Assembly: GCA_030765335.1 (NCBI GenBank)
Contig: JAVCCU010000009.1
Span: 5,559 to 69,558 of the forward strand
Length of the DNA stretch: 64,000 nucleotides
Origin: Candidatus Kaelpia aquatica
Lineage (GTDB): Bacteria > Omnitrophota > Gorgyraeia > Kaelpiales > Kaelpiaceae
Direction of reading: 5' to 3'
Shown piece by piece: positions 2,668 through 55,859 of the stretch. Under the pieces are notes generated by a model. That model saw only the letters and a program-made list of their open reading frames with translations. It had not been told where the DNA came from and did no database searches. Position 1 is the stretch's first letter. The number at the start of each line of letters is the position of its first letter. Both the position numbers and the translations under genes were made by a program.

Positions 2668-4137
2668 TTATGCTGCCATCATTTTTAATTTATCAACTAT
2701 ATCTATCATACCTTTGGTATCTAAGCCACAGTATTCTTCTAATGCTGCATAAAGCTTGTCTCGTTCTCTAGTATCTAGGCTATCTTTTAGCGTAGCATTA
2801 AAGTACTTAATGCTTGCAACTGCACCATTGGAGATATCTAGATCCTGATAACCTTTACCGGTAATCGCAGGAAGAACGCTCTTAAGCGAGTTGCTTCCCT
2901 GCTGTGCTGGGTTGTAGTAGTGATAATTCTTAAACGGTTCATAGAGATCCAAGAAGTTCTCTTCAATACAATTAAACCAGCTTCTATATTCCGGATAAGC
3001 CTCAGTAGCTTTATTGAGCACCCTTTTCTCAAAGATTGCAAAATAAGCTACTATTGACCCTTCTGCTGTAATAATCTTACTCAAGTTTTGAAGTATCTCT
3101 TTACGGGGGTCTTTCTTAGACTTAGAGAGATAATCAAAGAGCTCAGGCTTGCTATTCTCATCTTTTAAAAGATAGAGTACATACTGAAATGGTATATCTT
3201 CATAAGACCTAGAGTTATCATAGATAGGAACCGCAGATTTTATTGTTTCAAAATCAAGAAAGTACGCAGGGTATTTCAAGCTGCCTAAAAAATCAGATAG
3301 AGCGTTCTTATCTACGTGGACACTGTTATCTATATGACTTTTAAGTTGGATTTTTTGCTTATCGTTTAATATCTCTTCATCATCTATATCTTTAAGCTCC
3401 AAAATTCCTCTTTCAAGAAGTTCAAACCCAAGAGTTCTACCTCTGTTAAAGATAAACACATTGTTTTTAGATGGGATAAACTTCCAGCAAAAACCTTTAA
3501 GGCTGCATTCATATGGCGCAAAGCACTGCGGACCTATCTTGATATCAGGCATGCTGCTCTTTGATGCCAATGCAATCATATCCTCTACCCTGCTCTTAAT
3601 ATCAGATAGAGATATCTTGTCTATCTCTTCCGTTACATCCTCAGAGAGCATGAACTTGTAAGGGTCTATCTCTCCCTGTTTTATAAAATCAGGATTGATA
3701 TGCATTATATATGCCTTTCTGATCTTAAGACCCTTCTTAATAAGGCAATATCTCTGAAAAGCAACGTCTTCATAATGTTCATCTTTGACCTTCATGGAGC
3801 TCTTAACCTCTATGATATCCCAACTATCATCTTCGACTGGATTAAGAATATCTATTCTAGAATAGATATTATCAACCATTATCCCGGCTTCAAATATAGT
3901 TTGACGCTTCTTTATTGACTGTTGAGTGCGGTTGATATTTAAACTGAAATTAGAGTCACTCAAGTCTACGCCTTCGGGATATATTCTCTTTGCTACATCG
4001 CCCACCTCTTTACCTTGGTCAAATCTGAATTGAAGCTCAAGTTCAACAGCAGGTATCTCTTTAGGCATATGCTCTTTGACCCAAAGGTATTTAGGGCATT
4101 GTAAACCTGAGATATATTTTGATTTGGTAATCAACAT
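2668..4137 (-). CDS. DUF2779-family protein (predicted RecB/Cas4-like PD-(D/E)XK nuclease with Cys cluster)
   Basis: 489 aa. N-terminus ISKSKYISGLQCPKYLWV matches the hallmark start of DUF2779 proteins. C-terminal region has a Cys cluster (GPQCFAPYECSLKGFCW) like the Cas4/AddB Fe-S nuclease module. Confidence 0.5.
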   Translation of the reverse strand: MLITKSKYISGLQCPKYLWVKEHMPKEIPAVELELQFRFDQGKEVGDVAKRIYPEGVDLSDSNFSLNINRTQQSIKKRQTIFEAGIMVDNIYSRIDILNPVEDDSWDIIEVKSSMKVKDEHYEDVAFQRYCLIKKGLKIRKAYIMHINPDFIKQGEIDPYKFMLSEDVTEEIDKISLSDIKSRVEDMIALASKSSMPDIKIGPQCFAPYECSLKGFCWKFIPSKNNVFIFNRGRTLGFELLERGILELKDIDDEEILNDKQKIQLKSHIDNSVHVDKNALSDFLGSLKYPAYFLDFETIKSAVPIYDNSRSYEDIPFQYVLYLLKDENSKPELFDYLSKSKKDPRKEILQNLSKIITAEGSIVAYFAIFEKRVLNKATEAYPEYRSWFNCIEENFLDLYEPFKNYHYYNPAQQGSNSLKSVLPAITGKGYQDLDISNGAVASIKYFNATLKDSLDTRERDKLYAALEEYCGLDTKGMIDIVDKLKMMAA

Positions 4138-4496: not shown

Positions 4497-5501
4497 TCAA
4501 GTTTTATTATTAGGAGGAGCCATAAACTCAGCTCCTATAGGATTAGGGATACACTCCTTAACTATTCTTTCAATGGCTAATCTTACCTCTTGATCTAATT
4601 TCCAACCCATCACTTCATTCACTATCTCAAGCTGTTCTGGCTTTCTTGCACCCCAAAGAGCTATGTCAACACCCTTATGATCAAGTACCCACTTAACAGC
4701 AATGGACAACACACCTTTGTCATATCTTTCCTGAGTTAGATCATCAAGCTCATTAACCGCCTCAAGATAATTCTCATAGTGAGGCTTCAGAAACTTAGGG
4801 TCAATCTTTCTTATATCATCTCCTTGAAACTCCGTATCTATCTTAATCTTGCCGCTCAATAACCCCCTGCAAATGGTACCATAGGTAAGAGTTGTAACAC
4901 CATGAGTATGGCAATAAGGTAAGACATCCAATGCGGCAGATTGCTCAAACAAATTAAAAGGCGGCTGAGAAGTATGCAAAGGAGCATACTCTCTAAACTT
5001 ATCCATTTGAAGAGGACTATAGTTACTCACGCCTATAGCTCTTATCTTCTTGCTGTTATAAAGCTCAAGCATTGCTTCTGCACTCTCTCCTATAGGAGTA
5101 TCTTTATCCGGCCAATGTATTTGATATATATCTATATAATCTGTATTAAGCCTCTTTAGTGAATCGTCTAATTCTTTTAATATTCTTCTCTTAGATGAGT
5201 CTCTCTTAACATTATTCTCATCCCAATCAAGCCCAGCCTTAGTCGCAATCACCACATCTTCACGCCTGCCATATATTGAAATAGCTTTCCCTATTAACTC
5301 TTCAGATTTTCCATGTCCATAGATGGGGGCGGTATCGATGAGGTTTATACCGCGCTCCAGTGCTGCTAAGATTGTATTTATTGCATCATGTTCTTCTGTG
5401 CCGCCCCAAAGCCAACCGCCTATTGCCCAACTCCCCAAACCTATTCTAGAGACAGGTTTAATATCTGTATCTTTGATTTGAATATAATCCATGTTAAGCA
5501 A
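4497..5501 (-). CDS. aldo/keto reductase family oxidoreductase
   Basis: 334 aa. AKR signatures GLGSWAIGG, IDTAPIYGHGKSEELIGKA and IGVSNYS. Confidence 0.85.
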   Translation of the reverse strand: MLNMDYIQIKDTDIKPVSRIGLGSWAIGGWLWGGTEEHDAINTILAALERGINLIDTAPIYGHGKSEELIGKAISIYGRREDVVIATKAGLDWDENNVKRDSSKRRILKELDDSLKRLNTDYIDIYQIHWPDKDTPIGESAEAMLELYNSKKIRAIGVSNYSPLQMDKFREYAPLHTSQPPFNLFEQSAALDVLPYCHTHGVTTLTYGTICRGLLSGKIKIDTEFQGDDIRKIDPKFLKPHYENYLEAVNELDDLTQERYDKGVLSIAVKWVLDHKGVDIALWGARKPEQLEIVNEVMGWKLDQEVRLAIERIVKECIPNPIGAEFMAPPNNKT

Positions 5502-5549
5502 TATTATACAAAGAAATTAAAACAAGTAAAAGACTTAAGGAGCATTGGT

Positions 5550-5570
5550 CACTTGAGCCACAGTCAAGTG
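5550..5570 (-). terminator. possible hairpin terminator downstream of the 676-aa gene
   Basis: Perfect 7-bp inverted repeat CACTTGA-gccacag-TCAAGTG sits 54 nt after the minus-strand stop at 5624. Only a weak U-tract follows on the minus strand. Confidence 0.25.
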
Positions 5571-5623
5571 CTCTAGGCTATTCTCACTGTGCCTGGAAGG
5601 CAAGTTTTTAACAGCTGCAAGCT

Positions 5624-7654
5624 TTATTCTAAAGAGCTTTCTTCTTGAGACTGTAAAGAAAATGACCTTATAACATCTTCTACCTTTCGCTCTAATCCTC
5701 TCTCGATAAAACCAGGGATGGATTCGCGAAGTCTAGCCTTGAACTCAGACTCAAGCCATTTAAAATTGACTGCATCTTTAAGTCCAGAGAGTTGAAAGTC
5801 AAACTCTAGATAATCAAGTTCATCTCCCAAGATCTTAAGAAGCGGTCTAAATTTAGCTGACTCTGCAATGACAGATTTAGAGAGCGAGAGCCTAACTTTA
5901 CTAGATAAAAGATCATCAGAATTGATCTTAAAATAACCCTTTATTCTCACGTCTTCTGAATCAAGATTCATCTCTTTAAAATCAATTGAATTTTTAGTTA
6001 TACTCATAGATGAATTAATGCTGTTAAACTCTATATCTCTTATTGAAGAGATTACAAAGAAATCTGACAACCAGATGAGGAAATCTAAATCCTCCGTTCT
6101 ACCATCTTTTATTACCATATTACCTTCTAATTGTGATTCTGGATAATTACTATAATTGAAATTTCCGCTTAGTTTTCCAAAGATATTCGGAAAAAACAGG
6201 AAATCAAACCTATTTGAATCTATATCAGTAGGATTAAAATTGATATTGAATCTTAAGGGCAACTCTTCAATAGCCATAAATCCCTCTCCGTTAATAGTAC
6301 CTCCAAAAAGATTGGATGAAAAATTGAAATGCTTCGCCTCTTTTGCATTATCTATAGCAATAATCATATCATCCAAACGGAGATTGTAATCCTGATCCGT
6401 CTTATAAGATATATCTAAATAATCGCTTTTAATTTGAGGATTTCCGTTTTGATCCGAACAACGGTTTAACCCCTTAAACTCCACCACAACACTCTCTCTT
6501 TTATCGTCTTTAGGGTCTTCTCTTATAAAATCAATACTACAATCTCCATTAATACCATTCACAGCTAAAGACGCAGTTAACTTCAAGTCTAAAGCCTTAG
6601 AATTGTTCACTCTACCAGCAGGCATCTGGTCAGGATAACTACGGAAATTAAAATCAAAAGAAGGTGGTTCTATCAACATTATATTACCATAAACAACTGA
6701 AGGAACATCGTTTAAGTTAAAAGTTGCTTTCTTAACCTGGATTAAAGGATAGGATATATCCATCAAGAGATCTATATTCTGAATATTAAGGCTAGACTTA
6801 GAAGAACCTACTATACGCATATAGGGTTTGCTTCTAAAAATAAGAGTCTTTAGCTTTATAAACAAATCTGTATAATCAGGATGGGTTTCAAGAAAATCTC
6901 CGGCAGTCATATAACCATTAAGATGGAGACTATTATCTAAAAACTCTCCCTGCAGTTTTAAGTAAAGGTTGTCTTTTTTAAGATTTAAATTCTCCACCAA
7001 AAAACCATTCTGAGTTAAAGAACCTTTTAAACCATAGCTCAATACTTCAGGATGAGATATCAGCTTACCTCCTTCATGAGAATAAACCTTTAAAAAACCA
7101 ACAGAACCATTATTAGAAAAAGACATTCCATTAAACTTTAAAGAGCTGTCCAGGATTATACGTCTTTGGATTCCATCTTTACCAGGCATAATAATTGCAG
7201 CATTCTCTATACTGCATAGTGCAGGGCTCTGACTAAAAAATAATCTTAGTAATTTTGCGATGTCATGAATCTGGTCTTCTCTTATCTTGCCTCCTCCATA
7301 ATAGTACACTTTAGACTCTTTTATTTTAATATTTTGAGGAATGATTTTATTTTTAAACAAAGCCTTCTTAATAGAGAAAGAGATTTTTAGCTGGTCTATA
7401 TACTCTAGATGTAGAGATTTAGAGAGACCTAGAAACTCAACTCTATTTAAAACCAAGCTTGCAGGAGGCAAATAATATATTGAACCCAATTTTAAGTCCT
7501 CGCCAATATAATTGGCTAGCCTTAAAGTAATATTACCCAACGAAGACTGAAAGTATATATTCAGAGAAACTACCGCAATGGCTGTTAAAAAAATTAGCAC
7601 GCCGATTAGAAGGAAGGAAGGCCTAATAATATATTTCTGAAAATAATTTTTCAT
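5624..7654 (-). CDS. AsmA-like membrane-anchored protein (hypothetical)
   Basis: 676 aa. Single N-terminal TM helix, then a long soluble region. The N-terminal segment pattern (LKLGSIYYLPPASLVLNRVEF) resembles the AsmA N-domain. Overlaps the upstream TPR gene by 32 bp. Confidence 0.45.
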   Translation of the reverse strand: MKNYFQKYIIRPSFLLIGVLIFLTAIAVVSLNIYFQSSLGNITLRLANYIGEDLKLGSIYYLPPASLVLNRVEFLGLSKSLHLEYIDQLKISFSIKKALFKNKIIPQNIKIKESKVYYYGGGKIREDQIHDIAKLLRLFFSQSPALCSIENAAIIMPGKDGIQRRIILDSSLKFNGMSFSNNGSVGFLKVYSHEGGKLISHPEVLSYGLKGSLTQNGFLVENLNLKKDNLYLKLQGEFLDNSLHLNGYMTAGDFLETHPDYTDLFIKLKTLIFRSKPYMRIVGSSKSSLNIQNIDLLMDISYPLIQVKKATFNLNDVPSVVYGNIMLIEPPSFDFNFRSYPDQMPAGRVNNSKALDLKLTASLAVNGINGDCSIDFIREDPKDDKRESVVVEFKGLNRCSDQNGNPQIKSDYLDISYKTDQDYNLRLDDMIIAIDNAKEAKHFNFSSNLFGGTINGEGFMAIEELPLRFNINFNPTDIDSNRFDFLFFPNIFGKLSGNFNYSNYPESQLEGNMVIKDGRTEDLDFLIWLSDFFVISSIRDIEFNSINSSMSITKNSIDFKEMNLDSEDVRIKGYFKINSDDLLSSKVRLSLSKSVIAESAKFRPLLKILGDELDYLEFDFQLSGLKDAVNFKWLESEFKARLRESIPGFIERGLERKVEDVIRSFSLQSQEESSLE

Positions 7655-9754: not shown

Positions 9755-10063
9755 CTAAATCTGAGAGAAAATAAACTTGTAATAATCAATTACCACCTTA
9801 AGCGAATGAGCAAAGGCCTTGCCTAAAAAATAACTCAACACAAGAACTATAATTGTAACAATACTTTTACTTCTCCTACTAAATCTAGGATTTAACCATA
9901 GTAGAGGTAACGCAAAAGGCCCAACACAGACAAAAGCTACTATTAAATTAGAGGTCTTAAAAAACCAACTCTCTTTAGTTTTTTTACCTAAAAACTCACC
10001 ACAAAACCGGCATTTTATAGCTTCATCCTGAATCTCTTCAAAACAATAAGGGCATCTCTTCAT
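9755..10063 (-). CDS. zinc-ribbon domain membrane protein
   Basis: 102 aa. N-terminal CPYC...CRFCG zinc ribbon followed by two predicted TM helices. 4-bp overlap with the upstream gene. Confidence 0.5.
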
Positions 10064-10515
10064 TGTTCAACCATATAAACCCTGTCATTCTCGTGCACTT
10101 TCTTTATAACTTTTATTCCAGCCTCTTCCCCTTTATTAGCCTTAGCAACGCTCTTATGGTCAATCTGCATCGATTTAACGGTCTGCTTAAAATCGTCATG
10201 AGCTCCTTTAATATGAATCTTAGCACCTACTTCAAGTGGGGTCTTAAGCTTGATAATTCCAACAGATATTTTACCAAAATAATGTGTTACCCTACCAACC
10301 TCTTTTGGTTTTACCTTTTTTACTGGTTTTACTATCTCAGATTTCTTCCTAACAGCTGCTTTTTTTGTCACCTTTTTAACATTAAGTCTAGCTTTTACTA
10401 GATCACTCTTTTGGGATACTGCTTTTTTATTGGAAACGATTTTCTTCTTCGTGGGTTTAGCCACTACCTTTTTTATTTTTTCAGATTTTGATTTAAAAAT
10501 TCCAAATAACGCCAC
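10060..10515 (-). CDS. lysine-rich (histone-H1-like) protein with C-terminal beta-barrel resembling EF-Tu domain 2
   Basis: 151 aa. The N-terminal ~75 aa are K/A/V-rich low complexity ([20 protein letters not shown]...). The C-terminal ~75 aa are clearly paralogous to ORF 54468..54734 (shared G.VT.YF.K.S...I.L, IKG...DF...V.SMQ..H, DRV). Confidence 0.5.
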
Positions 10516-10535
10516 TCAGTCCTCCTCTGCCTATT

Positions 10536-11939
10536 TTAACTCTTAAGATATACGATATCTCCTTTAGCTGGAATCTGGGGGTTTATATTGAGTTTATTTC
10601 TTATATCTGCCCTCAAGCTATCTAGCTGTTCTGCTTCACCATGAACCAGAAAAACCCCTTTAACGTTTTTACTTACCCCTTTAACATAACTCAATAATCC
10701 ATCTCTGTCTGCGTGAGAACTAAAAGCATTGACTGTTATAACTTCTGCATGAAGTTCATATATCCTGCCGAATATGCGCACTGTTTTAGCTTTTTCAACT
10801 ATCCGTTTACCCAAGGTATTATTTGCCATAAAACCGATTACTATTATAGCGTTCTTAGGGTTTTCTATATTATTCTTTAAGTGGTGTAATATTCTTCCGT
10901 TTTCACACATCCCCGATGCTGAGATTAATATTATAGGTTTTGTTATATCATGAATCTGTTTTGACTTACTAACATCCTTAACATAGGTAACATTATCATA
11001 ACCAAAAGGGTCACCGCTATTCAAAAACTCTTTAGCAGTCTTTATGTCAAAATAATCTGCGCTCTCTCTAAATACATCGGTCACATTGACAGCCAAAGGT
11101 CCATCAACATAGATAGGGATCTTTTTAATCTTCTTCTTTCTCATCAACTGACTTATAAAGAAGACTATCAGCTGAGTTCTCTCTAAAGCAAAAGATGGTA
11201 TAATAATCTTGCCGCCCCTCTTTATAGTTTTATTTATAGCATTAGCAAGTTCAATCTCTGCATCCTCTATGCTACTATGTTTTCTATTTCCATAAGTACC
11301 TTCAATCATAAGATAATCCACTTCACTAGGAACCTCAGGGTTTTTAAGTAACGGCATATCGACCCTGCCCAAATCAACTGCATAGGCTATTCTTAAAGGC
11401 CTTCTTCTTGTTTTTACCTCAATCAAAGGTACGGCTGAGCCAAGAATATGACCTGCTTCATAAAAAGTAAGGTTAACATCTTTCGTTAAAGGAAAATTCC
11501 TGTGGTAATTAATGGCTCTTAAGTGCTTTAGTGCTTTTCTTGCCTCTCTCTGGGTATACAGCGGCTCCCTAGGAGGTAATCCGCGTCTTTTGTTTATCTT
11601 ATTAACATACTTAATATCTTCTCCTTGGATATATCCAGAATCTAGGAGCATGAAATGACAGAGTTCCTTTGTAACCGGAGTACAGTAGACTGCCCCCCTA
11701 TAGCCCTGCTTTATAAGATTTGGAATATTACCGCAATGATCTATATGAGCATGAGAGAGAACGCAGGCATCAATATTATTTAGGTTGAAAGCAAACTTAG
11801 AGTTTACCTTGTAATACTCATCTCTCTTTCCATGAAAAAGACCACAGTCAAGGAGTATCTTAGACTTAGAAGTCGATATGAGGTGCATTGAGCCTGTTAC
11901 AGTCTGAGCTCCACCGCAAAACTTAATAGATACAGCCAC
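10536..11939 (-). CDS. MBL-fold metallo-hydrolase, beta-CASP RNA-metabolising family
   Basis: 467 aa. HAHIDHCG (HxHxDH) motif and the beta-CASP layout with C-terminal His motifs. 20-bp gap to the downstream Lys-rich gene. Confidence 0.8.
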   Translation of the reverse strand: MAVSIKFCGGAQTVTGSMHLISTSKSKILLDCGLFHGKRDEYYKVNSKFAFNLNNIDACVLSHAHIDHCGNIPNLIKQGYRGAVYCTPVTKELCHFMLLDSGYIQGEDIKYVNKINKRRGLPPREPLYTQREARKALKHLRAINYHRNFPLTKDVNLTFYEAGHILGSAVPLIEVKTRRRPLRIAYAVDLGRVDMPLLKNPEVPSEVDYLMIEGTYGNRKHSSIEDAEIELANAINKTIKRGGKIIIPSFALERTQLIVFFISQLMRKKKIKKIPIYVDGPLAVNVTDVFRESADYFDIKTAKEFLNSGDPFGYDNVTYVKDVSKSKQIHDITKPIILISASGMCENGRILHHLKNNIENPKNAIIVIGFMANNTLGKRIVEKAKTVRIFGRIYELHAEVITVNAFSSHADRDGLLSYVKGVSKNVKGVFLVHGEAEQLDSLRADIRNKLNINPQIPAKGDIVYLKS

Positions 11940-12041
11940 TCGCTACCTCCTAAATTTAAAGCAACAAACTCTATATTTGAAATATTATATCAAGAAAAAA
12001 TTAAATAAGGAAGCGATATGAGTAAAAAGTGGTATCAAAAA

Positions 12042-13088
12042 TCAAGGGTAATAATTTACTGTTGCCTTATACCAAACACCTATACCTGGATATTTAGAAT
12101 TGAAATTATTCTCTAGCATTACTTGAACATCTTCCATGGGAAAATTAGATGGACTATCGCCAACAGTAGTAATATTAGCATGAAATGCAATCTCGTAAGG
12201 AGTAACAACTACTCTTTGAGCCTGCAATGGATCAAAGAGGTCCATGTAATGAAAAGAAAAATCAATAACTTCTATCAATTCTGGAGCTATGCTAGCATAA
12301 TTTCCATCAATACTATTATTAACCAAATATCGACTAAGTAGATACTCTCGGTATTCAAGAACATCTGCAGTCTCAGAACCTTCTTCCCACCCTGCTATAT
12401 CTATCGGAACTTGCTCTCTGTTACCAAGAATATTCATAGCTTTTAATAGCATCCCCGAACTTATATCATATAAATCAACATTTATATCCCAGCTTTTTAT
12501 CCAACTTTGTATCTCAATATCATCGTCAGATATATTCTCACTTGCATAACTATAAAGTCTATCATATATAGCCATTGCAACAGATAGCGCTTCTAATCCC
12601 CCTGAAGAACCTACACTTTTAACAGTTATTGTTAGGTCATCATTGGCTATTTTTTGCCTAATAAGACCATCCAAATAAATACTAACTTCGCCTAATCTGA
12701 ATCTAAATAGTGCAGTTTTAGTAGACATCGTTATAATACAAAAACTAGAACTTCTTAAAACACTAAGCAAAACTCCCAACTCTTCTACGTTGTTTCTTAA
12801 CGCCTGAGCATACCCTTCAAAACCTACTCCTGCAACCTCTGCCCTCTGCTTGAAATACCCAAGCATAATAATAGCCATATTATTCTTTTCTTCATCAGAT
12901 TTAACCAACGAACCTCTGTCGTCAAAAGCAATAATTTGATCAAGGATTTGGCTAGAAAGATCCAATTCAGAATTTAAGAGTTCACCCTTTAAGCGCCTTG
13001 CAAATCCAGTGCTAGAAAAACAGACTAGTAGAGCAATAATCATACACCAATTGATCTTAAAAATTCTATATTTAAACATATCTACCAT
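12042..13088 (-). CDS. hypothetical exported protein
   Basis: 348 aa. N-terminal hydrophobic signal/anchor. No firm family; see findings for a speculative CheR-like motif. Confidence 0.4.
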   Translation of the reverse strand: MVDMFKYRIFKINWCMIIALLVCFSSTGFARRLKGELLNSELDLSSQILDQIIAFDDRGSLVKSDEEKNNMAIIMLGYFKQRAEVAGVGFEGYAQALRNNVEELGVLLSVLRSSSFCIITMSTKTALFRFRLGEVSIYLDGLIRQKIANDDLTITVKSVGSSGGLEALSVAMAIYDRLYSYASENISDDDIEIQSWIKSWDINVDLYDISSGMLLKAMNILGNREQVPIDIAGWEEGSETADVLEYREYLLSRYLVNNSIDGNYASIAPELIEVIDFSFHYMDLFDPLQAQRVVVTPYEIAFHANITTVGDSPSNFPMEDVQVMLENNFNSKYPGIGVWYKATVNYYP

Positions 13089-28726: not shown

Positions 28727-28740
28727 ATAAACTTATTAAA

Positions 28741-28814
28741 TGGGCGATAGAGGACTTGAACCTCCGACATCCACGATGTGAACGTGGCGCTCTAGCCAAC
28801 TGAGCTAACCGCCC
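28741..28814 (-). tRNA. tRNA-Val (anticodon CAC), CCA not encoded
   Basis: Minus-strand sequence GGGCGGTTAGCTCAGTTGGCTAGAGCGCCACGTTCACATCGTGGATGTCGGAGGTTCAAGTCCTCTATCGCCCA folds with a 7-bp acceptor stem, anticodon loop TTCACAT and a GGTTCAAGTCC T-loop. Confidence 0.9.
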
Positions 28815-28843
28815 GCTCAACTCTTTTTGACTATACTACTAAA

Positions 28844-28916
28844 TGGTCCCGCCAGGACTTGAACCTGGAACCAACTGATTATGAGTCAGCTGCTCTGCCA
28901 ATTGAGCTACGGGACC
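28844..28916 (-). tRNA. tRNA-Met (anticodon CAT; elongator or Ile2-type), CCA not encoded
   Basis: Minus-strand sequence GGTCCCGTAGCTCAATTGGCAGAGCAGCTGACTCATAATCAGTTGGTTCCAGGTTCAAGTCCTGGCGGGACCA. Position 1:72 is paired and the anticodon stem lacks the three GC pairs of initiator tRNA. Confidence 0.85.
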
Positions 28917-30004: not shown

Positions 30005-33000
30005 CTAACTTAAGGGGCTCTTGCTTATATCCCTGGAAACCCTCTCTATCTTTAGTTCGCCTCTAGGCTTATTTATGTCATTTGGAATTACAATCTTATT
30101 ATTTACAAGAGATGCTCCTATAACACTCTCCATCGATTGATGGAACAACCAGCCAGCAGCACCAGTATATCCATTCCAGATCATACGTCCAACTTCGAAA
30201 TTAGTAAGAATATCGGCTGGCTGCTTATTAGGCTGACCACCATAGATCTCTATCTTCTCCCCTACAACATGACTAATAGGTGTTATCTTACGCCAGAGCC
30301 TATAGCTAATAGCTCTATACTTATCGGCTTTCTTGTGGTCACCCAATTTATCAAAACGCTCTACAAGAACTCTGGAAGCTCTTATAAGCCACTGCACACC
30401 ATGACAATACATTCCATTTTCACGTACCCCTTCAGGATACCTAGAACTCCTCCCAAGGTAAGGCTTGGTATCCTCATGCAATGCCGGCCAACCAAGCAAA
30501 ACAACATCTTCTTTCTCAAGCACTTCTAATGCAGTATGGAACACTATTAACGACCTTTCTAAATTTACGCCCGACTTAACAGCCCAGGCAGCCGTTAGAG
30601 CATCTATCTCCCATACACCGCTATCTTTTATTCCAATCTCTGTACCGTCATCATGAATAGCACGTAAATATCTATCCTCTCTCCAGGTACCTTCAAGAGC
30701 GTCCTCAAGTTTCTGCATTTTTTTAAGATAGTGTTCTTTGCGATCATGACCCTCTATTTTTTTAATTATAGGAAGCATGTGTCTTAGGATATAGTAGAGG
30801 AAAAACCCAAGCCATACACTCTCGCCCCGTCCTTCGCTTCCTATTTCATCCAGACCGTCATTCCAATCTCCAGTTCTTATTAACGGTATTCCATGTTCTC
30901 CCAATCGTTTTTCTAAAATAAGATCTATAGATCTTAAAGCATGCTTATAAACAGATTCTGCTTTTGTTGAACGATGATAGATGTGGCCCCAACCTGTTTT
31001 ATTGTGCGGCAAATCGGCAAACGGAAACTCTGACCATACATATGATGCCGTCTCATCTAATAACGAGTAATCACCGGTAGTCCTAACATACTCCACGATA
31101 GCCCAAGAGAGCCAGAGCGGGTTGTCTGAAGCATGGGAACGACAAGCAAAAGCAGTCCTACCATCAAGCTGAGTAAAGAACCAGTGGTATACATCTCCTT
31201 CAAAGAATTGATGAGAAGCATGGATAATAATCTGCTTTCTAGCTAACGCAGGGTCTACCCAGATAAGATTCACAGAGTCTTGAAGCTGATCCCTAAAACC
31301 AAAGGCTCCGCTTGTCTGATAAAAACCTCTCCGAGCCCAGATTCTCTCTGCTAAGGCCTGATATTTAAGCCAGTTTTGGTAGTGATCAAACTCGGTTTGA
31401 TTTGTCTTAACTTCTACCGTTCCTACAAAATTCAACCACCAGTTACGTGTATTATCAAGGCTCTTATTAACATAATCCAAGCTTTTGTATTTTTTGGCTA
31501 ACCTAAGCGCCTCCTCTCTCTCATCTGTCTGACCAAGGACAAATGCAATCGTACAATCTCCGCCTGCAGGAATATCCAAGGTACTTAAAAAAGCGGCTAT
31601 CTGCCTATCGTCGCAAAGCTGAGTATTATCAGCTGTACCCTTCTCTACCATAAATGGACGGGTTACACCTCTACCCGAACCAAAAAACCTTCCTCTCTTT
31701 GTCTCCACACTCTCAGAAGAGATTGAACTTGAAACAAAAGCCCAGCCTTTACGGAACATATTACGCGGGTTATGGAATAGGAGAACATTATTATCTTTAT
31801 CATGATTTACCAATAACTCACCTGAGCGTTCAGGCATAAATTCAAGCACCATCTGGAAATAAGGAGCAATACGAAATCTCTTTCTACGGCCACTGTTGTT
31901 TTTTATTTTTAAAAGATATACACCTAGAGGGTCATCTGGCGGCACAAATACAGTAAGCTCGGTTGAAATATTCTTTCCTTTCATATGAAACACCGCGCTA
32001 CCGTCAACGCTGAACTCAGATGTGTTCTTAACACTATTATCGTTAAGCGGAAAATAGGTTGGAGAGTACCAGCTGTCTTCATCTATATCATACAGGTATA
32101 TTGCCTCTCCAGGAATCTCTCTTGTAACCGTATCAGGCCAGTCTGGAGTCAGGCGGTTCTGTTGAGAGTTGCCGTTACACGATGTATGAAGACCGCGATT
32201 TGTGACCATTACAGAATGCCCCACAGAGTTAGACATAGCATGATCATAAGGCCTGGGAGTATAAGGAGTGCGGACTAAAATTTTGTTTCCATTATCCACA
32301 TATTCAGAATAAGGCTGTGGTGTTCCGGGAAGAATCTCGCCGTGACCGATAAGCAGCTTCTTCTCTCTCTTGGGTTCATAATTTACAGCAGTCTGCTTAG
32401 GTTTCAACAATCTCTTCACTAGATCAAGAGCGCCACTGCGGCTCTCCTCATATCCAATCATAAGATGTATAGTTTTAGAAGAGTTGGGATCAAGTTCCAC
32501 ATTAAGCATAAGGCTCCCAATTGGATCAAATGTCGGATAGCAGTCAGTATTCTCGGCTTTCATAAAATCTAAAGTCTCAAGCACTCTTGGATGCCAGATG
32601 CTCTGAGCACGACCGATAAAATCCATTCTGGAAAATAGAATACCTTCAGGAGAAACATCTGTTGCTAAAATACCCATAGAGTTAGTACATTTTTGCCAGG
32701 ATAAAAGCGTGTTAAATCCGCTAATATACTCCATCTGAGGAAATAACCGCGCATACTGAGTATGAAACCTATCATGCAATCCTCCGTTAAGAACCCACTC
32801 TAAGTAGGGAACAACTTTCAAACTGCGCTTACTATCTTTAAGATTTTTAATATTTATCTTCCAGATTTCTGCCCTGCTCTCCTGATCAGGTAAAGTTATA
32901 TCAACAGTTGTTTCAATACCATTTGAAGAATTGACAACTTTAAGAGAATCTAGGTTAGTTTTAATCTTAGAAGGCTTAAACTTATCTTCTGGGAAATTAC

Positions 33001-36000
33001 CTACTACAGGCCAATAGCGCTGTGTGGCATCAGTAGAGTCATCAACTAAATACAGGATCCTACCGCAGGGATCTATGAGATCATAGGACCGCCTGGTAAT
33101 ATCATATTCCGGAGGATAGACGCTGCTCTTTTTGTGGTCAACCTGACTATATATCTCCCCATTCTCCTTAAGAAATGTCCTATATCCAATCTTATTAGCC
33201 AGATGATAAGTTTTTACAAATTTCTTTCTTGAACGCCGCCTGAAAGAACGAATTAAAAACGATATTCCGCTAAAAATAAAAATGGCAATAAAGAACATCA
33301 GCAGTACTTGAAACAAAGCAATATTTTCTAAGAAAGCAAAGAAATTACCTCCAGCAGAATCACGCATAGCTATTGATTTACTCCAAGCATAATTCCACTC
33401 CTGGCCTCTTGGAATATAAAACGGAATTAAAAGAGGCCCCCAAGTACAAAACCTTTTGACCGCTTCTGGGATATAGCGCTGAGCTGTATCCATTTTAATA
33501 AACCGCGCAACTTTATCATCGAGCTTATCTAACCCTATAAAACTTAAGTTGACCAACGTTGCAACACGCAGCCCCATATGATCCATCCAGATAAGAACTC
33601 GAAAGAAATCAAAAGCAAGTACATATACAAAAAGATTGAGACTCCACTGCCTAAACGCCTGATCTGACATCGTTAAATTGTGGTATATAGCAGAGAGTGT
33701 GCGTATAGCTCCATCTTGGTTATACCATGTTGGGTCCGGCATCATCCGCAAGAAGGTAAATATAATTGGCGACATCCATAAACCCCAACGCAGAACATAT
33801 ATCATATGCTCTACAAGCTGAGAGAGACCTTCTCTTGAGAAGAAAAACTTAATCGGCGCTTTATGTTTTTCAAAAAAAGCAAGGAGGAAGACCTTATTGA
33901 TCGCAAACAACCAAGCGGCTACAGCCCAGTTTATAACTCCGGCAAGCGATTCATCAAACAGCAGCCTAACTCCGCCGCTATAGCTTCCCAAATCTATCCG
34001 CCCCCACTTATTGACTAAAGGATATGTAATATATTCAGCGGCTTTAAACCCTGAGCTTGTATATAACTTAAACTTCTCTATAACAACAGGGACCTGTAAA
34101 GCATCGAGATAAAAAGCTAACGCACTACCGATAAAAGCACCTAGGATAGCATCGACAAAATACCGTCTCCAGGATTGAATTCGCCCCTGAGATTTAAACT
34201 TATAGGAAACATCCCTTAAAATGCTTATCCCTGCAGAGCAGAAAACACCGAGAACTGCACCGAATAGAACCCTATTTGACATATCCCAGTCAATGAAATC
34301 ATTGCTTAAAGCATAGGCAACTCCTGCTCCTAGAATAACTCCTCTGGCATAAAGCACATGGTCACGATAGTTATAGCGTGCTCTCTGGAAAAAAGGCAGG
34401 CTACCATCAAAGGTCTCTATAATGGTTTTAAATAGCGGTAGAGTCAGAGCCCCGATAAAAATCCCTAAAAGAAGAGGGATCTTTTCTGCCGCTAGTTGTA
34501 ATAAATTAAAATCCAGGAGCAGATAAACTGAATATATAAACCCCATTAGAAGAGCGCTGTAAGCCATGCCCTTTTTTACGCCTGTCTTTACATGTTCAGT
34601 CACGCTTTCCCATGAAGGAGCTATCCTGCGTCCATAATCAAGAGCCATTCCCGTTAAGAAATAGATTACTCCCCAGAGTCCTGCAAAAGAAAACATACTA
34701 GTCAATATAATCACAGGGATCTTAACCGCTTCAGGTAGAGACCCGACTTTAGCAGTAGAGCCTAAGTTCGCAATTATAGGTGCAATAACAACGCCGATAG
34801 AGATAAACAAAATGAAAATATGGAGCTTACGTTTTTTAAGCAGCTCTCTCTTTATAACCAGACTAAAACCATTGGCAGCAGCCTCATTAAATCCAAACAC
34901 AATAACGACCCTGCCTAAGTATTCTAAAAACACTTCAAATGAAGACAAAATACCCAAGGTGAAAATATCACCTAACTGCCTAAGAAGTATTGGTGTCTGC
35001 AAAACCATTAACCAGTTAAGAAGATAGGGCGTTAAGATGATAGAGAATCCTGTAAGAGCCCTGACATGCTTGCCATTAATCGTTAAAGAACGCGCATTGG
35101 ATACCTGATAAATCAAAAAGATAATAACTGCAATATATTTATTCAGCATCAAAATCTGACCAAAATTAGAAGGGGCAAATAAAATACCGAGCCTGCTCGA
35201 AGAAGCAGCCAAAAGCCCAACAATTAAAACATTCTTAAATGCCTGGAGAGGAGTAAGATGCCTGCCTGTAATTGTAAATTTAAGTAGCCCTGCAATAACT
35301 GCACCCGCTAAACCCAGACAGAGAAACTCCCAGCTAAAACCCTTGTTCAATGGGCATATTGTACCAAGGTAACATATCCCAAAAGCAACAGCAGTTATTA
35401 ATGTAAATGTTAATCCATAAAGCAAATCTCTTTTTAACCTAGTAAGAATAGAGACGCTTAAAAGATCGGCCTTAATCTTAGACCCTGCATGCTTCTCTTT
35501 AGACCTCCTCCTCAAAAGCTTAATTGCTAAATTAGTAAAAAAACCTATAAAGATACTTAGTAGGAGAACTAAAGCTAACCTAAAGAAAATATAATTTTTA
35601 TGCAAAAAGCTCTGCTTATAAAACTCAACATCGAAGTATAAAAACCCTTCTAAGGCTTTATCCTCTGAAGCACCTTCGGAGAGAACAGCTTCTTCTGAAC
35701 TAGAGATAGTGGTTATAACAAAACATACTTCCTTAAGATCGCCTATTGTATTCCAAGCAACCTCCGCCCGAAAACAGTTCCAATCATTCTCAAGATCAAG
35801 AGGTATCGACTGCATAGCCCTAGAGCCCTTAATCTCCATCTTTACAGAGACCTCTTCCAGCTGTTTTTTATTAGGCGCCTTAAGGGAGACTCTAACGGCA
35901 TCTACACTATTCTTGTTTAAGCTGACAGGGTAATCTTTTGTCCATAATCCTACGATAGACCCTTGAGGTAGCCAGTATTTAAACCTTAAGATGTCTTTGC

Positions 36001-36199
36001 CTAAGGCTTCGTCAAATACTCTATCTGTTGAACCCAGAGCAATGCCGATATTGAACGTTCCTTTTTGATTCGAATCTAGAATACTAAAAGAGTTGTCAAC
36101 GCTGGAAAATGCTGGCAGAGAGAAGAAGAGTGTTGTTAAAAAAACTGCGATTATTTTTGGACAATAATTACGTTTTCTAAAAATCATCTTTTTTACCAT
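30005..36199 (-). CDS. giant (about 2065-2072 aa) polytopic membrane protein with C-terminal GH94-like module (tandem GH94 N-domains plus (alpha/alpha)6 catalytic domain), cyclic-beta-1,2-glucan-synthase-C-terminal-like
   Basis: N-terminal signal/anchor, then more than 15 predicted TM helices (aa ~200-1000), then two beta-sandwich repeats and a catalytic region containing the GH94 signature GAFGFRDQLQD. The ORF-track start is a TTG at 36223; the first ATG (MVKKMIFRK...) is at 36199. Confidence 0.7.
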   Translation of the reverse strand: MVKKMIFRKRNYCPKIIAVFLTTLFFSLPAFSSVDNSFSILDSNQKGTFNIGIALGSTDRVFDEALGKDILRFKYWLPQGSIVGLWTKDYPVSLNKNSVDAVRVSLKAPNKKQLEEVSVKMEIKGSRAMQSIPLDLENDWNCFRAEVAWNTIGDLKEVCFVITTISSSEEAVLSEGASEDKALEGFLYFDVEFYKQSFLHKNYIFFRLALVLLLSIFIGFFTNLAIKLLRRRSKEKHAGSKIKADLLSVSILTRLKRDLLYGLTFTLITAVAFGICYLGTICPLNKGFSWEFLCLGLAGAVIAGLLKFTITGRHLTPLQAFKNVLIVGLLAASSSRLGILFAPSNFGQILMLNKYIAVIIFLIYQVSNARSLTINGKHVRALTGFSIILTPYLLNWLMVLQTPILLRQLGDIFTLGILSSFEVFLEYLGRVVIVFGFNEAAANGFSLVIKRELLKKRKLHIFILFISIGVVIAPIIANLGSTAKVGSLPEAVKIPVIILTSMFSFAGLWGVIYFLTGMALDYGRRIAPSWESVTEHVKTGVKKGMAYSALLMGFIYSVYLLLDFNLLQLAAEKIPLLLGIFIGALTLPLFKTIIETFDGSLPFFQRARYNYRDHVLYARGVILGAGVAYALSNDFIDWDMSNRVLFGAVLGVFCSAGISILRDVSYKFKSQGRIQSWRRYFVDAILGAFIGSALAFYLDALQVPVVIEKFKLYTSSGFKAAEYITYPLVNKWGRIDLGSYSGGVRLLFDESLAGVINWAVAAWLFAINKVFLLAFFEKHKAPIKFFFSREGLSQLVEHMIYVLRWGLWMSPIIFTFLRMMPDPTWYNQDGAIRTLSAIYHNLTMSDQAFRQWSLNLFVYVLAFDFFRVLIWMDHMGLRVATLVNLSFIGLDKLDDKVARFIKMDTAQRYIPEAVKRFCTWGPLLIPFYIPRGQEWNYAWSKSIAMRDSAGGNFFAFLENIALFQVLLMFFIAIFIFSGISFLIRSFRRRSRKKFVKTYHLANKIGYRTFLKENGEIYSQVDHKKSSVYPPEYDITRRSYDLIDPCGRILYLVDDSTDATQRYWPVVGNFPEDKFKPSKIKTNLDSLKVVNSSNGIETTVDITLPDQESRAEIWKINIKNLKDSKRSLKVVPYLEWVLNGGLHDRFHTQYARLFPQMEYISGFNTLLSWQKCTNSMGILATDVSPEGILFSRMDFIGRAQSIWHPRVLETLDFMKAENTDCYPTFDPIGSLMLNVELDPNSSKTIHLMIGYEESRSGALDLVKRLLKPKQTAVNYEPKREKKLLIGHGEILPGTPQPYSEYVDNGNKILVRTPYTPRPYDHAMSNSVGHSVMVTNRGLHTSCNGNSQQNRLTPDWPDTVTREIPGEAIYLYDIDEDSWYSPTYFPLNDNSVKNTSEFSVDGSAVFHMKGKNISTELTVFVPPDDPLGVYLLKIKNNSGRRKRFRIAPYFQMVLEFMPERSGELLVNHDKDNNVLLFHNPRNMFRKGWAFVSSSISSESVETKRGRFFGSGRGVTRPFMVEKGTADNTQLCDDRQIAAFLSTLDIPAGGDCTIAFVLGQTDEREEALRLAKKYKSLDYVNKSLDNTRNWWLNFVGTVEVKTNQTEFDHYQNWLKYQALAERIWARRGFYQTSGAFGFRDQLQDSVNLIWVDPALARKQIIIHASHQFFEGDVYHWFFTQLDGRTAFACRSHASDNPLWLSWAIVEYVRTTGDYSLLDETASYVWSEFPFADLPHNKTGWGHIYHRSTKAESVYKHALRSIDLILEKRLGEHGIPLIRTGDWNDGLDEIGSEGRGESVWLGFFLYYILRHMLPIIKKIEGHDRKEHYLKKMQKLEDALEGTWREDRYLRAIHDDGTEIGIKDSGVWEIDALTAAWAVKSGVNLERSLIVFHTALEVLEKEDVVLLGWPALHEDTKPYLGRSSRYPEGVRENGMYCHGVQWLIRASRVLVERFDKLGDHKKADKYRAISYRLWRKITPISHVVGEKIEIYGGQPNKQPADILTNFEVGRMIWNGYTGAAGWLFHQSMESVIGASLVNNKIVIPNDINKPRGELKIERVSRDISKSPLS

Positions 36200-36289
36200 T
36201 ATAACCCTAAATATCTCAAACAATTAAAACAATCGGATTCCCGGCAACCCTACGCCCCTATTTTAATCAAAGTTTTATGTAGAGTGCAA

Positions 36290-53368: not shown

Positions 53369-54169
53369 TTACTCAGGATATATCTCAAGCTTAGGGCGCC
53401 CAAGAAGATTAACCTTTCCCTCTTTTAAGTCATATATCGCCTCAGAAGAATAGGTTAGTGAATTGCCGCGTCTAAGTTTAACATTGCCTTTGGCATGAGC
53501 CCTGCTAATACCCTTCTCGTCTTTATTGAAATAGATGATCAGCTTATCGCAGAATAGCTCTCCTCTCCTATCTAAAACGTGAACGTTATCGCTGAAAACA
53601 GCTATATTTTCGGTGTAATCTATATCTAAAGGACCGTCAGATTTAATTATAATCTGAGGCACAGTTTTAAATTTAACATCTTTTTTAATAACCGCTTTAG
53701 TTAATTTTGTATCAACCTCACCGCCTTCACCTGATATCTCGCTATCGTTTTTCACTATTCTCAACCTATCTTCTGTCCAGATAACATCTCTATCCTGATC
53801 CCATCGTAATATATCTGTAAAAAGTGTATCTCCTTCTAAGTTTTTTACAACAACACTGCCTGTCAATACTACCTGCCTATTCACTTTATTCAAAAAACCT
53901 TTGTCTGCCCGCATATCTACGGGGCCGTTATCGCTATAAAGCCTTGCCTTAATCGACTCCAGAGCTACATCATCCTTGCTTAACTGTGCACTCTCTCCTT
54001 CCACTTCCCATTTTTTGTTATTCTGCTTGTCATAGCCTGCTAGAGTAAAATCATTTAAGCTCTCCTCTAACGCATAGGAGCTCCTAGTAAAAAATACCAA
54101 CAATAAGACTGCAGTTTTTATTAACATTTTAAACCCGCCTATCCTAGCATGGCAACAGGGCCAAGTCAA
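53369..54169 (-). CDS. lptA: LptA/OstA-family periplasmic protein (true start probably at the internal Met, 54127)
   Basis: Signal peptide beginning MLIKTAVLLLVFF. Beta-jellyroll-like repeats. Immediately upstream of lptB. Confidence 0.55.
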   Translation of the reverse strand: MTWPCCHARIGGFKMLIKTAVLLLVFFTRSSYALEESLNDFTLAGYDKQNNKKWEVEGESAQLSKDDVALESIKARLYSDNGPVDMRADKGFLNKVNRQVVLTGSVVVKNLEGDTLFTDILRWDQDRDVIWTEDRLRIVKNDSEISGEGGEVDTKLTKAVIKKDVKFKTVPQIIIKSDGPLDIDYTENIAVFSDNVHVLDRRGELFCDKLIIYFNKDEKGISRAHAKGNVKLRRGNSLTYSSEAIYDLKEGKVNLLGRPKLEIYPE

Positions 54170-54212: not shown

Positions 54213-54443
54213 CTAATCCAATATCAGATTGGTAATTGTCTTAGTAATACCATTTATTGCACGCAGCTCTGTTACAACGAACCTCATCAGCTCTTCGTAA
54301 TTAGAAGCTTTGATCTGGGCTATAACATCCTGCTCGCCAGAGGTTAGGTCTACATCGACTACGTTTTCAAAAGACTTCATTTTTTGGATAACTTCTTTTT
54401 CTTCACCCGGCTCTACGTTAATTTTCAAATAAGCTCTGGCCAT
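54213..54443 (-). CDS. stand-alone AsnC/Lrp C-terminal (RAM) domain protein
   Basis: 76 aa. Matches the AsnC_trans_reg ligand-binding domain pattern (AYLKINVEPG...VVDVDLTSGEQDVIAQIKASNYEEL.RFV...LRAINGI..T.T.LIL). No HTH domain present. Confidence 0.6.
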   Translation of the reverse strand: MARAYLKINVEPGEEKEVIQKMKSFENVVDVDLTSGEQDVIAQIKASNYEELMRFVVTELRAINGITKTITNLILD

Positions 54444-54467: not shown

Positions 54468-54734
54468 CTAATCTCTTCTCAATTTAAAGACCCTGTCATG
54501 CAAACGAACCCGCTCTTTAACTCCTAGGCCTACAATCTGCCCCGGCAAGATCTCACTGACAATCTGATGTTCAACCTGCATAGAGTTCACATCCATCTCA
54601 AAATCGGTTGTATGACCTTTTATTTTAATCCTATCACCAGACTTCAAGCTTTTAGCTGTAATCTCTATAATAGCAGCAGAAGGTTTTGCATAAAAATTTG
54701 TAATGATACCTATCTCGATCCATTCTTCAGGCAT
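54468..54734 (-). CDS. small beta-barrel protein resembling EF-Tu domain 2 (paralog of the C-terminus of ORF 10060..10515)
   Basis: 88 aa. Aligns along its length with residues ~75-151 of the lysine-rich protein. Confidence 0.45.
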   Translation of the reverse strand: MPEEWIEIGIITNFYAKPSAAIIEITAKSLKSGDRIKIKGHTTDFEMDVNSMQVEHQIVSEILPGQIVGLGVKERVRLHDRVFKLRRD

Positions 54735-54761: not shown

Positions 54762-55859
54762 TCAAAGATAGCTAAGACCTTCACTAAGAGCAGAGGTTAT
54801 TAAAGCTTTATCTACTAGAGAAGATACTGCCACCAAACCTATGGAACTTGGCAATACAAATCTTAAGGTTCCAAATTTAGCTTTTTTATCATAAAGAATG
54901 CTACTCAAAATTTTTTCCTGCTCCATCTTTCTGTTCATCTTGGGCAAAGTCTTAAACTTCAAGATTAAATTTATTATTCTCTTTAAATCATTTTCTTTCA
55001 AAACCCCAAGCTTATTAGCAATCAAACTCTCAACAACGAGACCAAAAGATACCGCCTCCCCATGAGATACTCTCTTATACTCAGAGACTGTCTCTATAGC
55101 ATGGGCTATTGTATGGCCTAAGTTTAAGGCTATCCTTATATCCTCACTGTCATACTCGTCTCTTTCGACAAACGACGTCTTTATTCTGCTGCATCTTAAA
55201 ACTATCTCACCCCATAAGCCCAGCGAGAAAGAAGATGGGTCTTCATTGCTAGACTCTAATAATTCAAAGAGCTCTACATCTCCCAAGATTCCATATTTTA
55301 TAATCTCGGATAACCCATTGGAGAATTCTTTAAGAGGCAGGCTCTTTAAGAAATTCAAATCGGATACAACCAGTTTAGGCTGGTAGAAAGCTCCCAGCAG
55401 ATTCTTACCCCATTTTAAATCTATCGCAACTTTCCCGCCAATACTCGAATCGACTTGAGCAAGAAGAGTAGTCGGGATCTGGATGAAAGGCACGCCTCTC
55501 TTGTAAATAGCCGCTAAAAATCCTACCAGGTCACCAACAACTCCTCCTCCAAAAGCTATAAAGAGTACGCTCTCAGCCTTAGAAAACTCAACCGTTGATC
55601 TTAGAAGGTCAAAAAGAACCTGCCAAGACTTACTCTTCTCAGAGTCCGCAACTTCCAAGAAAAGGCTCTCTTTGAATACCTCTAAATAAGGCTCTAAGTA
55701 ACCCTTATAAAGAGAGTATATATTTCTATTGGATACCACAACTGCTAAGTGCTTCTCTAGGTTTAACCTTACAATTTCATCTTTCAGAGATGAGAGCGCT
55801 CCCTCTGAAATCAGAATATCATAAGACCTACCCTGTAAATCTAGGTTTATTCTCTCCAT
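54762..55859 (-). CDS. aroB: 3-dehydroquinate synthase
   Basis: 365 aa. Gly-rich NAD motif (FGGGVVGDLVGF) and His metal-binding motifs (HTIAHAIE). Confidence 0.9.
   Translation of the reverse strand: MERINLDLQGRSYDILISEGALSSLKDEIVRLNLEKHLAVVVSNRNIYSLYKGYLEPYLEVFKESLFLEVADSEKSKSWQVLFDLLRSTVEFSKAESVLFIAFGGGVVGDLVGFLAAIYKRGVPFIQIPTTLLAQVDSSIGGKVAIDLKWGKNLLGAFYQPKLVVSDLNFLKSLPLKEFSNGLSEIIKYGILGDVELFELLESSNEDPSSFSLGLWGEIVLRCSRIKTSFVERDEYDSEDIRIALNLGHTIAHAIETVSEYKRVSHGEAVSFGLVVESLIANKLGVLKENDLKRIINLILKFKTLPKMNRKMEQEKILSSILYDKKAKFGTLRFVLPSSIGLVAVSSLVDKALITSALSEGLSYL

Follow-up and report, generated by a model that had tools for sequence, protein, structure and literature searches.

Three adjacent minus-strand genes of Candidatus (Ca.) Kaelpia aquatica, a bacterium of the phylum Omnitrophota, are described here. 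They lie in a 64,000-nucleotide (nt) stretch of contig JAVCCU010000009.1 (assembly GCA_030765335.1, positions 5,559 to 69,558), which is referred to below as the window and in which positions are given unless stated otherwise. From 5′ to 3′, they encode a 467-amino-acid (aa) protein resembling the beta-CASP ribonucleases (RNases) of the TTHA0252/CPSF73 type (gene 1, 10536..11939, GTG start), a 151-aa protein composed of a polybasic tail and a beta-barrel (gene 2, 10060..10515, GTG start), and a 102-aa protein with a zinc ribbon and two hydrophobic segments (gene 3, 9755..10063, ATG start). A sequence-only reading of the window had linked the three into an RNase, RNA-chaperone and membrane-tether system and had placed the trio at 10060-11939, an interval that covers genes 1 and 2 only and leaves the zinc-ribbon gene outside.

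Organisation of the locus and its gene products

In agreement with the sequence-only reading, the list of open reading frames (ORFs) shows that genes 1 and 2 are spaced by 20 nt and that genes 2 and 3 share 4 nt (ATGA). Strong Shine-Dalgarno sequences can be read 6-7 nt 5′ of the start codons of gene 1 (GGAGG, 11950-11946) and gene 2 (GAGGAGG, 10527-10521). Terminator prediction gave none on the minus strand within the three-gene unit, and the next gene downstream of gene 3 is convergent. The tight spacing, the ribosome-binding sites, the lack of an internal minus-strand terminator and the convergent gene downstream make co-transcription plausible, as had been supposed, and the three genes are probably transcribed together in Kaelpia. 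A possible extended -10 promoter element, TGATATAAT, was read by eye on the minus strand about 45 nt 5′ of the RNase start (11984..11992), in an intergenic region of 102 nt; it was not listed by the promoter scan because it has no -35 match. All three genes are confirmed as genuine; their proteins are deposited, identical, for Ca. Kaelpia aquatica, and each has hundreds to thousands of homologues.

The product of gene 1 exceeds the Pfam cut-offs for Beta-Casp (118 bits, E 4e-34; cut-off 27.7), RMMBL (49.9 bits, E 3e-13; cut-off 21.6) and Lactamase_B (34.2 bits; cut-off 22.7), and its best solved structure is the Thermus thermophilus RNase TTHA0252 (PDB 2dkf/3iek), with which it aligns from end to end (5.8e-77). 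The motifs HxHxDH, GH, D, EGTYG, SxHA and VHGE all align with this enzyme: in the metallo-beta-lactamase (MBL) part 'shahidhcg' is paired with 'thahldhvg', and 'agHilGS' and 'vDlG' align, while the pairing in the beta-CASP part takes in EGTYG, SsHAd and lvHGE. Gene 1 therefore appears to encode the MBL beta-CASP ribonuclease that had been proposed, an ordinary TTHA0252-type enzyme with all catalytic motifs present and putative activity. Like TTHA0252, it consists of MBL, beta-CASP and RMMBL regions with no additional domains; it is about 36 aa longer, mostly through an insertion of about 20 aa near residues 104-125. This insertion is basic and reads YIQGEDIKYVNKINKRRGLPPR. Orthologues of about 467 aa, with 60-90% identity, are common across the Omnitrophota.

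Two other assignments of gene 1 were rejected. Cas14 (NF045584) is its top NCBIfam match, at 394 bits against a cut-off of 800, and the alignment covers only positions 2-434 of the 612 of the profile. A type VII CRISPR Cas14 is excluded by a score of half the cut-off together with the lack of Cas neighbours and of any CRISPR-like repeat array in the 64-kb window. The archaeal aCPSF1/FttA model (TIGR03675) gives 332 bits against 580, and since the match begins at profile position 175, the KH region is missing in gene 1.

Gene 3 shows the zinc knuckles CPYC...CRFC and two hydrophobic segments, in keeping with its earlier description as a zinc-ribbon membrane protein. Its match to Pfam Zn_ribbon_3 stays below the cut-off (20.2 bits, E 4e-4; cut-off 27), and most of its homologues have a precomputed PF13248 match. 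These homologues number 924, are about 100 aa long and 55-76% identical, and come mainly from the Omnitrophota among the matches listed. Gene 3 is thus predicted to encode an ordinary small zinc-ribbon membrane protein, common in this phylum.

The product of gene 2 falls into three parts: a hydrophobic motif, MALFGIFK, the general pattern of which is conserved at the exact N-terminus of long-form homologues (residues 1-8, 10492..10515); a disordered polybasic linker, recognised from the predicted local distance difference test (pLDDT) and from composition (residues 9-70, 10306..10491); and a beta-barrel, recognised from the structural model and Foldseek (residues 71-151, 10063..10305, with the stop codon at 10060-10062). 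In the AlphaFold model residues 1-70 have a pLDDT of 50-69 and no secondary structure, and residues 71-148 form an all-beta barrel of seven strands with a pLDDT of 93-97. Residues 1-70 carry a net charge of +22, with 21 Lys and 2 Arg among the 57 residues from 13 to 69, and among 64 ORFs of the window a 40-aa stretch with at least 40% Lys + Arg occurs in gene 2 alone. The lysine-rich tail noted earlier is therefore present. The KKxxAKK pattern ascribed to it did not survive closer analysis as a repeat: a search for tandem repeats gave a weak signal (9 nt, three copies), and thus the tail has no real KKxxAKK periodicity.

Gene 2 belongs to a family whose short form is a free-standing barrel of 84 aa. 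In the long form, represented by gene 2, the barrel is preceded by an N-terminal motif, M-x-[LIF]-[FL]-x-[FL]-[FWL]-K-x-[LI]-F, of which MALFGIFK is the Kaelpia variant, and by a K/R-rich linker. Since AAA- and AAG-rich open frames can arise in an AT-rich genome such as this one (GC 36%), and since 84 aa is the length of many family members, it could be argued that the lysine-rich region is an annotation artefact and that the true product is an 84-aa barrel behind a fortuitously open A-rich stretch. We find this scarcely credible, because GAGGAGG precedes the GTG at 10515, the start position is kept in three genomes (as GTG/ATG/ATG), the N-terminal motif is kept in about 30 species and no in-frame ATG, GTG or TTG occurs around residue 68. 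Moreover, indels in the tail stay in frame, one of 28 codons separating products of 151 and 123 aa, and the long forms fall into a clade apart from the short forms, with which they share genomes. Between genomes, the barrel sequences differ mainly at third codon positions.

Conservation of the gene order

Apart from the window, the trio turned up only in Ca. K. imicola (L001) and in a single close relative from a metagenome (L086); their RNases share 80-90% identity with that of the window (80% for L086). In L001 the zinc-ribbon ORF was not called in the annotation and is present at 5372-5680 of that locus. In the sister genus, Ca. Saelkia tenebricola (L085) has an RNase with 74% identity and the same flanks as Kaelpia, with ilvB/H/C upstream and AF_1994_N and DUF748 downstream, and the exact slot of genes 2 and 3 is occupied by a YjbQ-family gene (5415-5834 of L085).

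Beyond these genomes, barrel loci were sampled as species representatives, the best 80 of 337 genome matches being taken. A tblastn search with the RNase and zinc-ribbon proteins against 84 barrel loci gave matches in L001 only, and in the 80 species-representative loci no RNase or zinc-ribbon gene was detected within about 4 kb of the barrel. At least 1.8 kb of upstream sequence is available for 25 of the 29 long-form loci; the RNase is there in L001 and in none of the 24 others, and no ORF for a zinc-ribbon or transmembrane protein was found downstream of long forms other than that of L001. Followed from the side of the RNase, the gene is succeeded by MTHFR in Susulua and by unrelated genes in another Omnitrophota genome (L087, L088), and four zinc-ribbon loci from other genomes (L089-L092) lie in four different neighbourhoods. 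Pfam counts over 103 neighbours of the 29 long-form loci revealed no recurrent partner, the commonest families being Radical_SAM (5) and GIY-YIG (3), with all others at two or fewer.

The three genes occur together only in Kaelpia-level relatives though each is conserved, and thus their association looks like a chance neighbourhood. On balance, we favour the view that three Omnitrophota genes, each conserved in its own right, lie side by side at the genus level without making up a dedicated system, and that the long-form protein is a polyanion-bound adaptor. The gene order on which the earlier proposal of a joint system depended is not conserved beyond the genus.

The competing idea is that in Kaelpia the three proteins function together, as a minimal RNA-decay module bound to the membrane in which the RNase cuts, the barrel protein recruits or chaperones RNA and the zinc-ribbon protein tethers the others. 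The 20-nt gap, the 4-nt overlap, the ribosome-binding sites and the absence of an internal terminator would suit such a module, as would a tail apt for RNA binding, and other bacteria tether RNase E and RNase Y to the membrane. The arrangement is also kept in three genomes, L086 having all three genes together with the ATGA overlap. Adjacency is the sole support for a Kaelpia-specific functional link, and its conservation within Kaelpia leaves room for one. We nevertheless hold a functional unit to be quite unlikely, because the arrangement is missing outside Kaelpia-level relatives although each gene is widespread, and because Saelkia retains the RNase and its flanks with YjbQ instead of genes 2 and 3. 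Three genomes so close to one another hardly count as independent evidence that the gene order is under selection. Finally, the trio matched none of the PADLOC and NCBIfam system models, and no defence-system match was obtained. The trio itself therefore matters little, as a genus-specific neighbourhood and not a new system, and the residual value of the locus lies in the barrel family.

Between DUF1189 and the RNase, the window also holds a 348-aa ORF with a hydrophobic N-terminus (12042-13088, minus strand), whose sole domain match is weak (a CheR-like S-adenosylmethionine methyltransferase, E 0.05). It has no counterpart at that position in L001 or L086, so that the neighbourhood of the trio appears to be in flux.

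The barrel family

A word-index search with gene 2 gave 198 matches, and a full profile search extended the barrel family to 3069 clusters (50% identity), of which 2040 have E values below 1e-10; our literature search found nothing on this family. Its members bear database names such as 'translation elongation factor-like protein' and 'putative protease', and the source names among the matches are mostly Omnitrophota, with a few Elusimicrobia, Auribacterota, WOR-3 and Hydrogenedentota. A contig labelled 'Methanosarcinales archaeon' (L017, JAIWAR010000004.1) carries a typical Omnitrophota long-form gene of 189 aa and is probably mis-binned. Across the phylum, barrels are 60-75% identical. Residues H78, K103, G104, F109, Q111, S115, Q117, H141 and D144 are invariant, and the conserved polar residues are H78, H101, K103, D107, D108, Q111, S115, Q117, H120, H141, N143 and D144.

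The closest solved structure to the gene 2 barrel found by Foldseek is 4he5, the C-terminal domain of a U32 peptidase from Geobacillus, with a template-modelling (TM) score of 0.90 and a root-mean-square deviation of 0.9 Å over 80 residues. The runners-up are EF-Tu/EF1A domain 2, IF2 and then Pbp11; EF-Tu, EF1A and IF2 were retrieved with E values of 1e-4 to 1e-3 and a probability of 1.00. The barrel had been likened to domain 2 of translation factors, which both the model and Foldseek support as far as the fold is concerned, whereas the nearest relative in structure is the U32 domain. At the sequence level, gene 2 reaches 15 bits for Pfam EF-Tu domain 2 (PF03144; E 0.035, cut-off 30.3), a few of its homologues have a precomputed PF03144 match, and the barrel profile matches eIF5B, SelB and EF1A weakly (E 0.02-0.1) over the segment S-x-Q-x-x-H-x-x-V-x-x-A-x-x-G-x-x-V-G-I-K-V. 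The same profile matches the C-terminus of a 407-aa U32 enzyme (L088) at 7e-12, and the homologue P0202 scores 31.3 bits for PF16325 (cut-off 28.2); for gene 2 itself no PF16325 match was obtained at E ≤ 0.1. The barrel family appears to be homologous to the U32 C-terminal domain, and its fold is common to domain II of the translation factors. The possibility that the free-standing barrel is a split-off piece of a truncated U32 enzyme was rejected, the one Omnitrophota U32 enzyme examined (L088) retaining its C-terminal barrel.

Long forms constitute a single clade in a neighbour-joining tree without support values, and occur together with short forms in at least six genomes. Their linkers contain 40-50% Lys + Arg, vary in length from about 10 to 130 aa, with in-frame indels, and reach a charge of about +50; the composition of the long-form tail is 40% K, 9% R, 8% P, 7% S and 7% A. 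The mean net charge of the barrel is +5.1 in long forms and -2.4 in short forms. When all ORFs of 93 sequences were searched with the motif as a regular expression, 18 of the 18 matches were long-form barrel proteins, and a general signal shared by many proteins was accordingly dismissed. With its motif, polybasic linker and basic barrel, gene 2 represents a new architecture built on a known fold, in a family that is itself uncharacterised.

Other architectures of the family include tandem barrels, polybasic tails on the C-terminal side of the barrel (P0163, P0183) and N-terminal extensions that are either zinc-ribbon-like (CxxC...CxxC, P0147) or acidic (P0203). TIR domains are fused to two barrels in P0122, P0123, P0126, P0132 and P0202, their TIR parts matching PADLOC TIR models, and REC-GAF-barrel fusions were found in P0212 and P0247. 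The barrels of the TIR and REC-GAF fusions are near-identical to those of the family (100-146 bits to the family profile). These fusions suggest that the barrel may serve as a sensor or output module.

The window contains a second, divergent paralogue of 88 aa (54468-54734, minus strand), 36% identical to the gene 2 barrel and without most of the conserved histidines (TNFY, GHTTDF, VRLHD). It is located between aroB (54762-55859) and a gene for a 76-aa AsnC-type ligand-binding protein (54213-54443), and a nearby gene, named by eye, is presumably lptB.

Over the whole window, the minus strand carries 61 of the 64 selected ORFs, and all 2-kb bins have a negative GC skew (-0.10 to -0.29); this minus-strand excess and uniformly negative skew fit a single replichore with extreme gene-strand bias. 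A very large minus-strand ORF of 2072 aa spans 30005-36223. At 28734-28866 there is a pair of 30-nt direct repeats, 103 nt apart, each of which ends in GGACTTGAACCT; they resemble the 3′ portions of two neighbouring candidate tRNA genes on the opposite strand.

Proposed binding by the long form and comparison with known proteins

If the long form is a polyanion-bound adaptor, its tail (+22) would hold the protein on RNA, likely on ribosomes or tRNA, and the highly conserved barrel would recognise a specific ligand or partner that is itself conserved. In Kaelpia, a transcript shared with the RNase may then simply serve to co-express two RNA-related housekeeping genes. A tail of this charge on a barrel that is already basic would be expected to settle on RNA, DNA or acidic lipid. 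That the polyanion is RNA we propose tentatively and with some reserve. RNA is favoured because the length and composition of the tail are typical of nucleic-acid binders and because in the barrel family such a tail can stand at either end, the C-terminal polybasic tails of P0163 and P0183 arguing for a position-independent electrostatic role. Furthermore, the structural kin of the barrel either handle tRNA ends (EF-Tu domain 2, IF2/eIF5B) or sit in the tRNA hydroxylase TrhP (PMC6599085), and Pbp11, a free-standing barrel that shares this fold, shifts tRNA only with its disordered N-terminal tail (PMC9540759).

Several observations weigh against this proposal. Polyanion binding is putative, being deduced from composition and charge; in sequence, the resemblance to Pbp11 is marginal (E 0.053); and since short-form barrels are acidic on average, binding RNA would not be a general property of the barrel. 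RNA-related genes occur sporadically beside long forms (a DEAD/DbpA helicase, a tRNA_bind protein, a cold-shock domain) and are too few for enrichment. In addition, the sole strongly conserved genomic context of the family concerns the envelope: of 41 short-form loci, 15 have the barrel gene within a lipid A cluster of the order lpxC/fabZ-lpxA-lpxI-barrel-SpoIID/TPR (L016, L031, L035, L039, L043, L050, L054-L056, L067, L070, L072, L076, L077, L079), in which lpxC/fabZ is a fusion, the barrel falls around position 4000 in most loci and the gaps are often tiny, from -4 or -8 up to 42 nt. In about ten other short-form loci, which belong to a separate short-form clade, the barrel is found 180-360 nt 5′ of genes for V-type ATPase subunits G, I and c (L012, L020, L034, L037, L040, L041, L044, L048, L060, L062, L064). 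The divergent paralogue of the window, too, lies just 5′ of an lptC/lptA-like region (53369-54169). Finally, the N-terminal hydrophobic motif followed by basic residues equally resembles a membrane-binding element.

These contexts could instead point to a long form that is attached peripherally to the membrane, with the motif as an amphipathic helix binding anionic phospholipids together with the polybasic stretch and so positioning the barrel at the inner membrane for envelope biogenesis. In most long forms the hydrophobic moment of the first 12 residues is 0.43-0.68, the motif is reminiscent of the membrane-targeting helices of MinE or Vipp1/PspA, and in Kaelpia a membrane protein and AsmA/DUF748 are encoded downstream. 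Linkers of 40-130 aa with charges of +20 to +50, however, far exceed typical lipid-binding polybasic patches and look like nucleic-acid-binding tails, and other family members have C-terminal basic tails without the motif. The Kaelpia motif is weakly amphipathic (moment 0.20), and AlphaFold predicts no helix there. Moreover, each of the short-form contexts tracks one clade of the barrel tree, and thus may reflect inherited synteny. Membrane binding, the main alternative to RNA, therefore seems unlikely to us.

A nucleoid-associated role, in which the long form would bind DNA through a histone-H1-like tail, is also improbable. A K-rich tail with P, S, A and T resembles the C-terminal domains of H1 and bacterial H1-like tails, such as those of chlamydial Hc1 and of Pseudomonas AlgP and PhaF, and the gene 2 tail is likewise K/A/P/S-rich, disordered and of low complexity. 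To this extent the histone-H1-like label given to it earlier was apt, but the likeness is compositional and without homology. Gene 2 has neither a winged-helix or other DNA-binding globular domain nor a linker-histone match in Pfam, its sole folded part being a barrel of the translation-factor type whose structural relatives bind tRNA or sit in RNA-modifying enzymes. Apart from the three GIY-YIG neighbours, no DNA-metabolism context recurs around the long forms.

A bolder conjecture, which we regard as highly improbable, is that the long-form barrel was recruited in Kaelpia as an RNA-binding cofactor of the RNase, the co-translated zinc-ribbon protein anchoring the pair, and that the barrel, with its invariant His/Asp-rich surface and its fusions to TIR and REC-GAF domains, is more broadly an unrecognised ligand- or partner-sensing module. 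If true, it would describe a minimal three-part membrane-associated RNA-decay module whose parts are unlike those of the RNase E and RNase Y degradosomes.

Returning to the polyanion-bound adaptor that we favour, its barrel compares best with three groups of known proteins. Peptidase_U32_C (PF16325; 4he5/4he6) is the best structural match and belongs to the tRNA hydroxylase TrhP (PMC6599085). The barrel of gene 2 differs from it in being free-standing, with only a disordered tail before it and no U32 catalytic domain (PF01136), and in having its own conserved His/Asp-rich signature, including VHxND. The ligand of the barrel, once found, would illuminate the C-terminal domain of the U32 RNA hydroxylases. 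The domain II barrels of EF-Tu, EF1A and SelB and the C-terminal barrels of IF2/eIF5B have the same fold as gene 2, which is without a GTPase domain and is not a translation factor.

The nearest functional analogy is offered by Pbp11, a free-standing EF-Tu-domain-2-like barrel of about 90 aa behind a disordered N-terminal tail, as in gene 2. The two can be superposed with TM scores of 0.63-0.67 (Foldseek E 9e-4, 23-25% identity), and the profile match to PDB 7anu is the marginal one given above. The Pbp11 tail is short, whereas that of the long forms has 60-130 aa, is strongly polybasic and begins with a conserved motif. To our knowledge, the proteasome ATPase PAN is lacking from bacteria. Pbp11 of Pyrococcus abyssi, described from the Thermococcales, binds PAN and requires its disordered N-terminal tail for tRNA binding (PMC9540759). 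Gene 2 may be most like Pbp11 in its working, and its ligand, once found, would add a bacterial counterpart to this archaeal tRNA-binding protein.

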